DNA of 34,595 nt from an uncultured Methanosarcinales archaeon (lineage in GTDB: Archaea; Nanobdellota; Nanobdellia; Woesearchaeales; UBA12501), in the NCBI GenBank assembly GCA_964397315.1, contig CAYNHV010000013.1:1-34595 (forward strand), read 5' to 3'. Positions 30,001 through 34,595 of this stretch are shown piece after piece (the first letter of the stretch is position 1; every line of letters begins with the position of its first letter). The position numbers are program-made.

Positions 30001-33000
30001 TGCTGAACATGAAATAAGCAATAAGCGCTATTGCTATTATGATAATCCAGAAGACAAGCTCTGAGCTCATTCCAATAGCAAACACAACCAAGTTTACAAT
30101 AAGGATTAGAATCAGCACAACAGCAAGAGTCTTTTTTCTCATTTAGCTTTTCCCAAGATCCTGCTTACTTTTGTTCCGCAGTGAGGGCAGACCCCTTTTA
30201 TTGCCTTCAGGTTGTTCTTCAGCACAACCTCCTCAGGGTCCTTTATCTCCACCTGCTTCCTGCATTTCATGCATCTTGCCTGCGGCATCCATACCACCTT
30301 TTGGTTTATATACTGTTTAATATATGCTGTTTAATATATATTAATATATAAATTTATTGGAAAAAACAGCCCTCAAAACAACAGAAATCCTACAGAATCA
30401 GTAGCCCTCAATTATCCTGGAGTATCTCTTTTTCCTCTCCTGCTCTGCCTTTTCCCGCCTTAACTGCTCCATTTGCCTTCTCTCTATATACGAGCCAAGC
30501 TCCTCAGAGCACTCCCTGCAAAACACCTTTTTTCCCATGGACTTGCCTATATCAAGCTTGCATATCTGCCTCCCGCACCACTGGCAGCTTCCCACCACCT
30601 GCCTGTTGTGTTCCTTGCAATACATATGGTATGCTATGTCATGGAAGTATATAAATCTAGCGATGCTGGAAGAGCAATCTGCTTTATTTGACACCCTCAA
30701 CAGCCCAGCTCAGGAACATTTATATATGTGCAACACTATGCCCCTCATGAGGTGATAGTGTGGTAAAGAGAATAACCTCTATCAAGACTGCAAAGGCCGC
30801 TAACAAGGAGGTTAGCAGGCTCAAGAAGAAAATAAAAGCAGTCATGAAGAGGAAGGACGACCTGAAGAAAAAAAAGAAAAAGTCCAAGAAAAAGAAGAAG
30901 AAAAGATAATAGTCCCGAATTATCTTACAGCCTTAAGCCAGCTTCTTCTAGGTATTGTTGTAACCCCATCCAGCCCCCTCCTTTGTATAGCATTGTACAA
31001 CCCCTCAACTTTTCAGAAGGTTAGGATTCTAGTGCGGCACTAAAGAAGAAACTACTCATTCTCCACTCTCGGAGCGAGTATGAAGCTCAGGTTCAGCCTG
31101 TCAACAACCTTGTAATCAAGCTTCAGGGGATAATCCTTGTTGAAATGTATCATGACCTCAGAAGTCAGCTTTCCAGCCACAGCCATCTTCTTGAGGTACT
31201 CTATTGAGTATTTTGACTTCATGCTTTCCTTTGAGTGCATGGTTATCTTGGTGTCTTCGCTGTCCTTTATCTCAATCTTTGCCTTGCTCAGGTCCCCTTC
31301 TGCCTGGATTGTGAGCTTTGACTGCTCAGCCTTGAAGGAAACGCTCTCCCCTATTATGTCCACATCCTCCACAGCCTGCATCAGCGTCTCTGAGGTGGTT
31401 TTTATGCTTGCTCCGAAGTCCAGCTCAGGAACCTTCTGGTCCTTCTCCTCTATGTCAATTATCGGAAGATAGAAGGTTCTTGTTGTGTTTCCCTTGAATG
31501 TTATCTTTAGCTTGCTCTCCTCGGTCTCAAGGGTTATGGTGTCATTCTGCCCTGCTCTCTTGAGTATCTGCTTGAGGTTGCTGAGGTTTATGGCCACGTC
31601 AACAGGCTCTTTGACCTCGTACTCCACAAAAGAGCTTGAGAGAAGCTTGAATATGACCATTGCCACATTGGCAGGGTCCATTGCTATAAGCTCTATGGCC
31701 TCTGAGTTTATCCTGAACCGCGCTTCATTGACAAGCTCGGATATTATTGTGATGCTGTCCTTAAGGTATTTAGGCTCTGCCAGACTTAACTTCATTATCA
31801 AACCCCCTTGTTGCTGTAAAATGTCACTGGTATTTAAAGTTTTTGCGCTCCCAGCTTTATCCTCCCTCCATCCTCTGCAAGGATAACGCCTTTTCCGAGC
31901 TTGTAGCCCATCTCCCTGGCCAGGTCAGCCATTGCAGCAGCCATCTTCATCTCGCAGTGGGCGGGGATTATTGTCCTGGGCTTGAGCATCTCAATCAGGT
32001 CTCTCTGGTCCTCTCTTGCGCAGTGGCCTGAGACATGAATGTCCCTGAATATCCTCACTCCCTTGTCCTTGAGCCTGCTCTCAAGCTGCTCCCTGTTGGC
32101 TTCATTAAGCTCATTGGGTATGATCTTGCATGAGAATATGACCTGGTCTCCTGCCTCAAGCCTGAACTTGTACTCATTGTTCACTATCCTTGAAAGGACT
32201 GCCTTTGGCTCTCCCTGGTGGCCTGTGACAACCACAACATACTTGTCTTTTTTCTTGGCTATTCTGTTGAGGTGTTTCTTTATCTTGTCCCTGAACCCCA
32301 CTATCTTTGCGTCTTTTGAGAATTCAACAATATTCACCTTCTCCCCTGCGTTCACGTACTTCCTGAGGGATCTTCCCAGGAGGAGCACTTTCCTGTCCAT
32401 CCTTCTTCCGAATTCTATTATTGACTTCAGCCTTGCAAGGTGGGATGAGAATGTTGTGACAACAACAGCCTTGCCTTTTGAGTTTGTGCCAAGCATGACA
32501 TCCTTCAGCATCTCTTTTGCCACGCTTTCTGATGGCGTCTTCTTTGCTGACTGGGAGTATATGGAATCCACGATCAGGCACAACACACCCTCTTTTCCCA
32601 GCTCCTTTAATCTGCTGAAGTTGGGTTTCTTTCCCACAACAGGGTGGCGGTCAAACTTGAAATCGTTGGCATAAACTATTGTGCCGTATTTTGTGTGCAG
32701 GGCGATCATTGTGGTCTGCGGCGTGGAATGCGTTATGTTTATGAACTCCGCTGTTATGCTCTCTGAAACCTTATAGGATGCATTTGGGTTGACTGACTTT
32801 ATCTCGTTCCTCAGCTTTATCTTCTCATCAGAGAGTATTGTCTCAAGCACAGCCTTTGCAAAAGGAGGGCAAATTATGGGGGCGTCAAACTTGTTTGAGA
32901 TAAAGGGGATGGCGCCTATATGATCCAGGTGCGCGTGCGTTGACAGGACAGCCTTTGTCATGGGTATCCAGTCCCTTATTGATGACAGGTCAGGCACAGC

Positions 33001-34595
33001 GCCTATCTCTGTTAGCTTTTTCTGGCTGAAATCATACACATCCTCATCCTCTGTGTAGGCTATGTAGGATTCAAGGTGGAGGCCCATGTCAATGACCACC
33101 ACCTCATCATCAACCCTGATGGCTGTGCAGTTCTTTCCAACCTCATTGTAACCGCCTACTGTGCATATCTCCAGTGTCATGATGCCTGATCAGCAGGGTT
33201 ATTTTATAAAGGTTTCTTTACTTTTAATAAGCCGGAAGCTCCTCACATAGTGTGGGGGTGAAGGCTTTTTAAAGTTCCAAAAATCCGCCTGTCAAAAACG
33301 CTGCTTAAAGCCATGGGCTAAAGCCCAGGGATAGCCACGGGCTGCGGATTTTTGTTACAATACCTTTAAATAACCCTCCAATTCCCCTCTCGTGATGAAG
33401 CACACACTCAGGGTCACGCTGCTCATTGTGGCGCTTTTCCTTGCAGCCCAGCTTGTCGGGCTGGCCACAGTGAACAAGCACATAGAGGTTTCCACAGAGC
33501 CTGACACAGGAAAGGTTGTGGTGGTGCATCCGGACACTGTCCTTGGCCCCCCTCCTGAAGTGGAGAACAAGTCAGGCTCATTCCTCATCATAGGCCTTCT
33601 TGTGCTGGTGGGGACTGCGCTCCTCCTGCTGATAATCAGGTACAGGGTCTACAGGGTGTGGAAGGCATGGTTTATCATTGCGGTGTGGGCCACAATGGCA
33701 GTCGCATTCGGCGTGTACATTGACTGGATTGTTGCTGCTGCACTGGCCCTCGGCCTGGCTCTCTGGAAGGTTTACAGGCCGAATGTTTTCATCTACAACC
33801 TTACCGAAGTGTTTGTGTATACTGGCATTGCAATACTCATACTTCCCATACTCAACCTCTTTGCCGCTTTCGGCCTCCTTATTCTCATATCCCTTTATGA
33901 TATGTATGCTGTGTGGCATTCAAAGCACATGGTCAGGATGGCCCAGTTCCAGACCCAGACAAAGGTGTTTGCGGGGCTTCTGGTGCCTTACAGCAACAGC
34001 AGCAAGGGGAAAAAGGCAGGCAGGGGAAAGAAAAAGAGCTGGATTAAGGCAAAGTCAAGAAGCGCAATACTTGGAGGAGGGGACATAGCGTTCCCCCTGT
34101 TATTCTCTGCTGCAGTGATGGAGCATTTCATAACATCAGGGGGTTTCTCAAAAGCAGCTGCAATGGGCGCGGCAGGAATAATCTCAGCTACTGCTGCTGC
34201 ATCTCTCTTTTTGCTCCTGGCAAAGGCTGAGGACAAGAAGTTCTACCCTGCAATGCCCTTCCTCAGCATGGGGTGCTTTGCAGGCTATCTCATCACATTC
34301 CTGATATTCTAGGCATAAGCCCTTTCACTTCTTCTTTTTTCTGGAGCCTGTTCCGGCGTGAGCCTTCACTATGATCCAAAGGCCCACAACAAGGAAAACA
34401 ATAGTCCAGGGAGAGATGTTCCAGAACATCCACACTCCCAGGTCCTTGAGCAGCAGAAGCACGCCAAGAACCAGGATGGCCCATCCAAAACCTGTTTTAC
34501 CGCACAGAATACCGCCTCAGCAGGTGTAGAAGAGCCTCCATTTTATATGTCAGAAATATACCACTGGTTTATTTAACCAGTGGACAAAGTCCACA

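Follow-up and report, generated by a model that had tools for sequence, protein, structure and literature searches.

The RNase J and PCNA genes of Woesearchaeales form a conserved tandem pair, possibly inherited as the end of an ancestral gene block

In Woesearchaeales, the gene for archaeal RNase J (aRNase J; rnj) is commonly found directly upstream of the gene for the sliding clamp PCNA (pcn), and this pairing is conserved within the order and confined to it in every sample searched. The pair was analyzed in a window of 34,595 nucleotides (contig CAYNHV010000013.1), where the survey's finding was confirmed with respect to shared strand, spacing and protein lengths (Table 1). While aRNase J is regarded as an enzyme of RNA decay and RNA maturation, the survey had placed it at the replication fork together with PCNA. 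The explanation preferred here, to which about an even chance is given, is that rnj–pcn is an old, inherited tandem pair connected by co-expression at most. RNase J would then be an ordinary aRNase J, acting as a 5ʹ to 3ʹ exoribonuclease and endoribonuclease, and PCNA an ordinary clamp.

Table 1. Positions of the rnj–pcn features within the window
Feature	Positions	Strand	Description
Likely rnj promoter	33203..33216	-	BRE-like GAAACC, then TATA box TTTATAAA starting 30 nt upstream of the ATG
rnj, archaeal RNase J (aRNase J)	31834..33180	-	448 aa; catalytic motifs intact
Candidate pcn-only promoter	31831..31838	-	TATA-like TTTAAATA, surrounding sequence AAAAACTTTAAATACC; overlaps the rnj stop codon; predicted from sequence
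rnj–pcn spacer	31796..31833	-	38 nt, rnj stop to pcn start
SD-like GGGGG of pcn	31803..31807	-	8–12 nt upstream of the pcn ATG
pcn, PCNA sliding clamp	31052..31795	-	247 aa; sole genome copy

The genome that contains the window (1.47 Mb, 93% complete) carries one RNase J gene and one PCNA gene. The rnj protein scores 418.1 bits against the TIGR00649 model, "RNase J family beta-CASP ribonuclease" (cut-off 400), in a match spanning positions 1–420 of the 546 in the profile. Its domains (PF22505, PF00753 and PF07521) comprise a metallo-β-lactamase core, a β-CASP insert and an RMMBL end. Eight residues (H82, H84, D86, H87, H151, D173, H382 and H386) are invariant across 81 RNase J sequences, and H408 is nearly so. 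The protein is of the ~450-aa form, which is without the bacterial C-terminal dimerization domain, and RNase J of Methanolobus psychrophilus (PDB 5HAA, 470-aa chain) aligns with it from end to end (E 4e-123). The M. psychrophilus enzyme (also PDB 5WS2) has the same metallo-β-lactamase and β-CASP architecture with intact motifs, whereas the window gene differs in its neighbor and in an order-specific loop of its product (residues 39–46). By family score, domains and catalytic motifs, the rnj product is thus an archaeal-form RNase J, with 5ʹ to 3ʹ exoribonuclease and endoribonuclease activities predicted from its family. The pcn protein matches PCNA_N and PCNA_C (59 bits each), TIGR00590 (137 bits, cut-off 99) and PCNA structures from Thermococcales (E about 1e-47), and its N-terminal MKL(T/S)LAEP is kept across relatives.

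To determine how widespread the pair is, 151 genomes of the order were sampled, spanning 136 GTDB families and 144 genera; RNase J was present in 131, PCNA in 138 and both in 125. In 78 of these 125 genomes, RNase J immediately precedes PCNA on the same strand, the alignment ends being less than 300 nt apart. This count includes three unpublished genomes (G121 and G132, adjacent; G112, separate contigs), without which it is 76/122. The same order and strand are found with a gap of 850–2963 nt in 13 more genomes and with a gap of 3.3–7.3 kb in four. The two genes are on opposite strands 932 nt apart in one genome, 66.8 kb apart in another and on separate contigs in 28. All 78 adjacent genomes have rnj before pcn, and adjacency persists at only 37–40% RNase J identity to the window protein (G028, G037, G097 and G128). 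A second sample consisted of the best 80 RNase J loci among genome contigs, mostly titled Candidatus Woesearchaeota or Nanoarchaeota. PCNA is adjacent at 60 of these loci, lies 495–2626 nt downstream on the same strand at eight more and is absent from at least 1 kb of downstream sequence at nine; three loci are uninformative.

Both samples uphold the survey's estimate that at least half of the order has the pairing. The accompanying claim, that the pairing is seen practically nowhere else, holds within the class, to which the sampled outgroup was limited: PCNA was found within ~5 kb of RNase J in none of 40 genomes from other orders (36 families). PCNA is located elsewhere in the genome in all five of the sister-order genomes checked. 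There is a negligible probability that the pairing reflects chance or a sampling artefact, with the count inflated by many near-identical genomes; the breadth of families and genera, adjacency down to 37% RNase J identity and the second sample all contradict this. Regardless of the role of RNase J, the rnj–pcn pair is a clean, order-wide synteny marker.

A single origin of the pair is indicated by its uniform gene order together with the RNase J tree (MAFFT and FastTree, midpoint-rooted), in which the sequences of the order form one clade, one long branch excepted, in a topology read without support values. The pair probably arose a single time, at the base of the order, where rnj and pcn would have closed an ancestral block (c3a, c3b, c2, rnj, pcn). 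This block is evident at 15 of 21 18-kb loci, which have two c3 genes and c2 upstream on the same strand. The c2 and c3 proteins have no Pfam match and in the Atlas match only hypothetical proteins of Woesearchaeota and Nanobdellota; no homologues were found near RNase J or PCNA in 45 sister-order loci.

Thirteen of the 151 genomes of the order have PCNA but no RNase J. Seven of them (G007, G025, G039, G072, G090, G113 and G143) carry c3 and c2 ahead of PCNA in the same orientation, and in five (G007, G039, G072, G090 and G113) the distance from c2 to PCNA is only 320–500 nt. In these five genomes, rnj has been cleanly deleted and the PCNA locus is unaltered; several genomes with a clean deletion are near-complete. 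Moreover, families f14 and f26 are without RNase J in both genomes sampled, at 96–99% completeness. RNase J is therefore dispensable in parts of the order.

Where both genes are present on one contig, the rnj|pcn junction is retained in 78 of 97 genomes, whereas c2 and rnj are immediate neighbors at just 7 of 21 loci, and the gene directly after PCNA is of the same family at no more than 2 of 21 (both by crude ORF calls). The junction thus outlasts those that flank it, which points to selection on that junction. Furthermore, 13 genomes have genes inserted between rnj and pcn, some on the opposite strand, and still retain the order and strand of the pair. PolB is the inserted gene in G131, and three or four other genomes have a large PolB-like gene there, whose product ends in a PIP-like tail. 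The large inserted proteins (789–928 aa) have no Pfam, NCBIfam or PDB sequence match, and hhalign against the G131 PolB gave a probability of 0.7% (E 0.084); family B polymerases were returned by the Atlas feature search alone, at 0.89, below its own bar of 0.9. These PolB-like genes lodged before PCNA are a lead in themselves. The persistence of the junction, the order and strand kept despite insertions and the PolB or PolB-like inserts all count against the reading of a merely inherited pair.

The survey had described the pair as an operon. Like a bicistronic operon, rnj and pcn share a strand and have a short spacer (33–153 nt, median 65, among 27 adjacent loci of the order with exact spacers); however, the second gene, judged by motif, is not promoterless. 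In the window sequence, no Shine-Dalgarno (SD) site follows the TATA box of rnj, which implies a leaderless rnj mRNA. A TATA-like element starts at −36 to −24 from the rnj ATG at 24 of 57 loci of the order under a strict pattern and is found upstream of rnj at most of 42 loci under a looser one, while only 3 of 57 loci have an SD-like site there. The spacer runs from the rnj stop codon (TAA, 31836–31834) to the pcn ATG (31795–31793), and the TATA-like element of pcn in the window is ~45 nt upstream of this ATG. Such an element starts at −60 to −36 from the PCNA ATG at 31 of 42 adjacent loci, compared with a mean of 5.7 and a maximum of 12 in 500 composition shuffles. The SD-like site of pcn is present at all 27 adjacent loci with exact spacers and at 40 of 42 in the larger set. 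The rnj promoter and its leaderless mRNA are likely, and the pcn promoter is a candidate, as far as motifs in AT-rich DNA can indicate.

The signals of pcn are equally frequent where rnj does not directly precede it (TATA-like, 21/29; SD-like, 25/29), and an operon is accordingly not established. At these 29 loci, rnj is absent or other genes lie between, some on the opposite strand, so pcn must there be expressed independently. A true bicistronic operon kept for matched expression, in which pcn depends largely on the rnj promoter and the products have no biochemical link, is thus unlikely: most of the 29 loci keep the SD-like and TATA-like signals at the same distance, and the adjacent loci mostly have a TATA-like element before pcn as well. 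The shared strand and short spacers are consistent with such an operon, as is the absence from the window spacer of any T run longer than TTTT. Additionally, internal cistrons of archaeal operons typically carry an SD-like site, and here pcn has one next to an rnj that looks leaderless. Read-through from rnj is possible but would be unnecessary for PCNA expression.

For an inherited tandem pair, the sequence signals suggest the following arrangement. The rnj gene would be expressed as a leaderless mRNA from the TATA box at about −30, and pcn would be transcribed from the TATA-like element at about −45, with a short leader carrying the GGGGG ribosome-binding site; we infer that rnj read-through may add to pcn expression. 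Two causes may mainly have retained the pair. The spacer of 33–153 nt appears to be packed with the promoter and leader of pcn, which would leave almost no site for a harmless break. In addition, co-expression of two growth-linked housekeeping genes is perhaps mildly useful. The pair may thus offer a worked example of an apparent "operon" that consists of two promoters packed around a ~40–65-nt spacer, although the motif-only nature of these promoters weighs against this account.

The pcn leader also bears on a post-transcriptional link, in which clamp level would track RNase J level through trimming or degradation, by RNase J, of the leader or of read-through RNA. Only adjacency and the conservation of the leader suggest this, and it is very improbable: neither a conserved structure nor an RNA family was found in the region, no Rfam family was found anywhere in the window, and the leader is retained unchanged in genomes without RNase J.

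If RNase J were a client of the clamp, a PCNA-interacting motif might mark it, and the survey had itself pointed out that RNase J is without a canonical PIP box whereas PolB and the large subunit of PolD end in one. This observation stands and extends to other enzymes, as PolB, PolD-DP2, Fen1 and RNase HII of the same genome all end in QxxLGx[FW]. The canonical PIP box (Qxx[LIMV]xx[FYW][FYW]) was found in none of 43 RNase J sequences from the order and none of 40 from sister orders; a relaxed pattern was found in 0/43 and 2/40, and APIM in 1/43 and 2/40, respectively. Of the RNase J sequences, just 2 of 42 from the order and 5 of 40 from sister orders have Qxx[LIMV] among their final 12 residues. 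The conserved RNase J end (...NGQ(K/R)hxh) was considered as a core PIP and rejected, its spacing being Qx-hydrophobic rather than Qxx. RNase J C-termini are alike in the two groups, and a terminal extension is absent. With PIP, APIM and terminal extension all wanting and only six of its 448 positions conserved in an order-specific manner, RNase J appears to bear no mark of a clamp client, which supports the reading of an inherited pair. A complex prediction for PCNA (47-row alignment) with RNase J (81-row alignment) gave 0.00 in both runs, made without controls, and weighs neither way.

Primers are usually removed by Fen1 and RNase HII. The idea that RNase J fills in for a missing primer-removal enzyme was discarded, as the genome encodes Fen1, RNase HII, Rrp41/Rrp42 and two DHH proteins. 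Action of RNase J at the fork with PCNA is not demonstrated, given the lack of a PIP box, the presence of Fen1 and RNase HII and the loss of RNase J from 13 of 151 genomes that retain PCNA.

A broader DNA-linked role is a tentative possibility. Here, aRNase J of the class would also serve as a 5ʹ to 3ʹ nuclease on DNA or RNA–DNA ends, in end resection, in repair at forks or in clearing primers or R-loops, and a shared pathway would keep rnj beside pcn in the order and beside mre11-rad50 in a sister clade, with PCNA contacted indirectly or through a non-PIP surface. In that sister clade, RNase J is followed on the same strand by Mre11-like and then Rad50-like genes. These lie 32–3271 nt downstream of RNase J in 13 of 40 sister genomes (12 families) and within 500 nt in eight of the 13. 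The Mre11-like (69–89 bits) and Rad50-like (120–132 bits) proteins score below the equivalog cut-offs of their best NCBIfam models, and Pfam assigns them Metallophos and AAA_23/SbcC_Walker_B. RNase J thus has two separate DNA-metabolism contexts in sister clades, and this link to Mre11-Rad50 also counts against the reading of an inherited pair. However, each context maps to a single clade, so that the two together represent at most two independent events. Moreover, translation genes (GluRS, L7Ae) form another conserved RNase J neighborhood in sister clades, so conserved gene order around rnj is common in the class. In the order, Mre11-like and Rad50-like genes are unlinked from rnj–pcn (contigs C3 and C6 in the genome of the window).

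NurA is the usual archaeal 5ʹ to 3ʹ resection nuclease. It was found in none of the 13 sister genomes with the RNase J–Mre11-Rad50 cluster and in 13 of the 27 others, a contrast that overstates the case because related genomes are not independent; it was likewise not found in the genome of the window. Conversely, NurA and RNase J occur together in five sampled genomes of the order (G131, G059, G094, G096 and G272). The DNA-linked role would also be in line with the frequent retention of the rnj|pcn junction, with PolB or PolB-like genes in the rnj–pcn slot and with the clustering of order-specific residues. Those residues (Y39, T43, D45 and E46) sit in one loop (39–46; Y..YTEDED). Set against this are support from gene order alone, the lack in RNase J of the PIP that all canonical clients of that genome carry, the presence of Fen1 and RNase HII and the loss of RNase J from some families with the PCNA locus unchanged. 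Doubtful, too, is the specific proposal that aRNase J doubles as a 5ʹ to 3ʹ DNA-end or fork nuclease, acting with PCNA in the order and, in the sister clade, alongside Mre11-Rad50 in place of the missing NurA, with a PIP-less clamp contact perhaps through the acidic loop.

Published work on related enzymes also favors a DNA-linked role. In Jia et al. 2023 (PMC10470531), aRNase J of Haloferax volcanii cleaves both RNA and ssDNA and belongs to a RecJ3/RecJ4 complex that is needed after DNA damage. That system resembles the present one in tying aRNase J to DNA repair; however, its partners are RecJ-like proteins and Cdc48a/SAMP1, while the rnj–pcn link is known from genes alone. That paper mentions PCNA only with Hef, and its synteny section names no PCNA neighbor. 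A DNA-repair link of aRNase J is thus already in print, and what would be new is a link to the clamp. In Pyrococcus furiosus, a PIP variant lacking Q mediates both the binding of Mre11-Rad50 by PCNA and its stimulation (Hogrel et al. 2018, PMC6009593). A review (PMC10804225) places Bacillus subtilis RNase J1, a "torpedo" at stalled RNA polymerase, at replication–transcription conflicts as well. This places a family member at the replication/transcription interface, although the bacterial enzyme has a C-terminal domain and its substrate is nascent RNA, and the review passages considered mention no clamp link. According to the abstract of Phung et al. 2020, aRNase J is conserved in Euryarchaeota, whereas 168/201 genomes of a DPANN class carry it here. 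In PMC3406710, PCNA matches were seen only in the reference list. No paper in the literature searched, most of it available in part, links RNase J to PCNA, to the order or to a Mre11-Rad50 gene cluster.

Known clamp-associated enzymes provide further comparisons. Like RNase J, PolB, PolD-DP2, Fen1 and RNase HII are nucleic-acid enzymes, and the genes of clamp clients sometimes adjoin that of PCNA, as with PolB in G131, but these clients carry the PIP ending and all 83 RNase J sequences are without the canonical motif. Human SNM1A is a β-CASP DNA exonuclease that binds PCNA and has a PIP box; it belongs to another β-CASP branch than RNase J, is recruited by the clamp and acts on DNA. A clamp- or resection-linked RNase J, if real, would constitute a new DNA-repair nuclease for archaea with reduced genomes and a parallel to the eukaryotic β-CASP DNA nucleases. 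The sister-clade cluster resembles archaeal Mre11-Rad50(-HerA-NurA) in placing a 5ʹ to 3ʹ nuclease gene beside mre11-rad50, but the nuclease is RNase J instead of NurA, and the NCBIfam cut-offs are not reached by the Mre11 and Rad50 matches. A second lead is the placement of RNase J next to Mre11-Rad50 where no NurA is detected.

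The product of rnj, the RNase J gene, carries Lactamase_B, RNase_J_b_CASP and RMMBL domains and aligns end to end with the Methanolobus psychrophilus RNase J (PDB 5HAA; E 4e-123). Among 81 relatives, residues H82, H84, D86, H87, H151, D173, H382 and H386 of the metal-binding motifs are invariant, and H408 is nearly so. The downstream gene, pcn, encodes a standard PCNA that matches Thermococcales PCNA structures (E ~1e-47). Each gene is present in a single copy in the source genome (1.47 Mb, 61 contigs, 93% complete), and both lie on the minus strand in the order rnj, pcn. Reading of the coordinates and spacer bears out the survey's finding that the two adjoin on the same strand, 38 nt apart.

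Features of the rnj-pcn region and of the compared loci (L, loci with flanks; G, sampled genomes, G000 being that of the window)
Feature	Location	Strand	Details
rnj	window 31834-33180	-	448 aa; 418 bits on TIGR00649 "RNase J family beta-CASP ribonuclease" (cut-off 400)
pcn	window 31052-31795	-	247 aa; PCNA_N and PCNA_C; TIGR00590 above cut-off
IspH/LytB	window 27510-28355	+	297 bits
Calcineurin-like phosphoesterase	window 28390-29094	+	234 aa; 35 nt after IspH/LytB
DUF5679 zinc ribbon	window 30139-30297	-	52 aa
Presenilin-type intramembrane protease	window 33392-34312	+	divergent from rnj
RNase J loop Y..YTEDED	window 33043-33066		residues 39-46
BRE/TATA-like element GAAACC-TTTATAAA	starts 30 nt before rnj ATG in window		sequence motif
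TATA-like element AAAAACTTTAAATACC	window 31831-31838	-	overlaps rnj stop codon
GGGGG, SD-like site of pcn	window 31803-31807	-	sequence motif
c3a			~180-330 aa; proline-rich, coiled-coil end
c3b			~80 aa
c2			~110-135 aa
c3/c2, example locus	L113:10616-12191	-
c3 genes of G000	C43:3548-3987		another contig
Inserted PolB	L082:2830-5157	-	G131
Large inserted proteins	L083:3438-5807	+
	L086:2797-5583	-
	L098:2796-5543	-
	L085:986-3607	-
RNase J, sister-clade example	L070:4995-6332
Mre11-like, same locus	L070:6364-7581
Rad50-like, same locus	L070:7620-9623

Coordinate tables of RNase J and PCNA were compared across 151 Woesearchaeales genomes from 136 GTDB families, in which RNase J is found in 131, PCNA in 138 and both in 125. 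In 78 of these 125 genomes, rnj lies directly upstream of pcn on the same strand (76 of 122 without the unpublished genomes G112, G121 and G132). Order and strand are kept across a gap of 0.85-3 kb in a further 13 and of 3.3-7.3 kb in 4; the genes occupy opposite strands in 1, lie 67 kb apart in 1 and fall on separate, often short contigs in 28. Adjacency persists at RNase J identities as low as 37-40%. By a second route, the best 80 RNase J loci in the contig collection comprise 60 adjacent to PCNA, 8 with PCNA within 2.7 kb, 9 without PCNA in the available flank and 3 that are uninformative. RNase J is frequent in the class (168 of 201 genomes at E <= 1e-30). PCNA was found within ~5 kb of it in none of 40 genomes (36 families) from other orders of the class, and was far from it in all five genomes checked from those orders. 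The pairing is real, ancient and order-specific; the survey had placed it in at least half of the order and practically nowhere else, the latter holding within the class as sampled. No report of it was found in the literature searched.

The pair also has conserved company. Twenty 18-kb loci plus the window, all picked for having the adjacent pair, were surveyed, and three order-specific genes, c3a, c3b and c2, stand upstream of rnj on the same strand in 15 of the 21; no Pfam match was found for any of them. In a crude ORF call, rnj has c2 as its immediate neighbor in 7 of 21 loci, and no gene family lies directly 3' of pcn in more than 2. Moreover, PCNA is present and RNase J not detected in 13 of the 151 genomes (G007, G013, G025, G039, G049, G052, G072, G086, G090, G113, G126, G143 and G150). 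Families f14 and f26 are represented here by both of their sampled members (96-99% complete), and several of the 13 reach 99-100% completeness. In 7 of the 13, c3 and c2 are found upstream of pcn on the same strand, and in 5 of those 7 the gap from c2 to pcn is only 320-500 nt; rnj has therefore dropped out cleanly, and the other genes of the block have stayed where they were. RNase J can thus be spared in some lineages of the order, and pcn is independent of rnj; aRNase J is not essential throughout the Woesearchaeales.

Each gene appears to carry its own expression signals. The TATA-like element close to the rnj ATG and the near absence of Shine-Dalgarno (SD)-like sites upstream of rnj (3 of 57 loci) give its mRNA the look of a leaderless transcript. 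For pcn, all 27 adjacent loci of a first set have GGGGG 8-15 nt ahead of the ATG, and an SD-like site is found in 40 of 42 adjacent loci of the full non-redundant set. Alone, such a site fits an internal cistron, but it also occurs in 25 of 29 genomes in which rnj is absent or kept apart from pcn by intervening genes, in some cases on the opposite strand. In 31 of the 42 adjacent loci, a TATA-like element begins 36-60 nt ahead of the pcn ATG, against 5.7 on average and 12 at most in 500 composition shuffles of these loci; it is also present in 21 of the 29 loci without rnj directly in front. Because both elements are present with or without adjacent rnj, the likeliest arrangement is a separate promoter for pcn followed by a short leader with an SD site; transcription reading through from rnj could occur but would not be needed. 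The survey's operon thus keeps its common strand and short spacer but must accommodate this promoter-like element, which makes a strict operon kept for co-expression alone improbable. Given about even confidence is the reading that rnj and pcn are an inherited tandem pair within a five-gene ancestral block (c3a, c3b, c2, rnj, pcn). Each gene would use its own signals, and the two would stay together because every part of the short spacer has a function, with co-expression perhaps helping to keep them so.

For ribosome binding, pcn nearly always has GGGGG(T/A) and not GGAGG (65 of 71 order loci). Set against an rnj that looks leaderless, this may reflect the lineage's split of leadered and leaderless genes.

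The survey had further placed RNase J at the replication fork or in DNA repair together with PCNA. A DNA-linked role of this kind is judged rather unlikely, and the lack of a PIP box in RNase J is part of the reason. As the survey had noted, RNase J has no canonical PIP box, the PCNA-binding motif Qxx[LIMV]xx[FYW][FYW] (0 of 43 order and 0 of 40 sister-order sequences). Relaxed PIP and APIM patterns are no commoner in the order than outside it, and no terminal extension was found in order or sister-order sequences. The PIP tails that the survey ascribed to PolB and the PolD large subunit of G000 are there (QSKLGEFF and, in DP2, QEGLGKWFG), and Fen1 and RNase HII end in QKGLGDFMA and QSRLGDFKK; next to RNase J, these four clamp clients of G000 are clearly marked. 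G000 encodes Fen1, RNase HII, an exosome (Rrp41/Rrp42) and two DHH proteins, which leaves no obvious vacancy in primer removal. Against the role, too, stand the clean losses of rnj. Only 6 of the 448 RNase J positions are conserved in an order-specific manner, and four form their only cluster, in the loop Y..YTEDED: Y39 (98%), T43 (91%), D45 (77%) and E46 (88% of order sequences), at 15% or less in sister orders. This loop may serve as an interface, or it may be no more than a signature of the clade.

In favor of a DNA-linked role, rnj and pcn stay adjacent in 78 of the 97 genomes that have them on one contig, so that their junction is retained more often than the flanking ones, and what enters it can be a polymerase gene. 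In G131, which shares its family with G000, the gene between rnj and pcn on the same strand encodes a family B DNA polymerase with QKSLVDF at its end. An inserted protein of 789-928 aa with a PIP-like tail and no family match occupies the slot in G066, G031 and G080. Exo I/II/III-like motifs can be made out by eye in the two largest, whose resemblance to family B polymerases shows only in an Atlas feature search (at 0.89, no more than a lead). The large inserted proteins may represent highly divergent and possibly mobile PolB genes that settled before PCNA.

A second clade-level context supports the same role. In the sister clade of the RNase J tree, rnj is followed on the same strand, at a distance of 32-3271 nt, by an Mre11-like gene in 13 of 40 genomes, from 12 families (L048, L053, L059, L060, L062, L063, L066, L067, L068, L070, L072, L074 and L076). 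The gap is below 500 nt in 8 of the 13, and a Rad50-like gene follows in 12. NurA was detected in 0 of these 13 versus 13 of the other 27, a contrast that is no statistical test because the sister genomes are related; it was not found in G000 either. RNase J of this clade may be a NurA-like resection nuclease, an arrangement for which no paper was found in the literature searched. However, NurA and RNase J occur together in 5 sampled genomes of the order. A third sister group has rnj in a translation context, with genes for GluRS, a phosphoesterase and L7Ae after it. Biochemistry published on a distant archaeon also favors a link to DNA: H. volcanii aRNase J cleaves single-stranded DNA, and its complex with RecJ3/RecJ4 matters after DNA damage (PMC10470531). 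P. furiosus PCNA is described as binding and stimulating Mre11-Rad50 via a PIP variant without Q (PMC6009593), and a review sets B. subtilis RNase J1 in conflicts between replication and transcription (PMC10804225). By a term search of Phung et al. 2020 (PMC7144898), PCNA is absent and replication appears in the reference list only. Together with the published biochemistry, the two clade-level contexts keep a DNA-linked role alive.

An RNase J 56-63% identical to that of the window is found in many public records under the title 'uncultured Methanosarcinales archaeon' and in one under 'Candidatus Aminicenantes bacterium' (L142, L147, L152, L157, L159 and others). Because these titles are odd among Woesearchaeota- and Nanoarchaeota-titled records in the same identity range, they look like mislabelled taxonomy.
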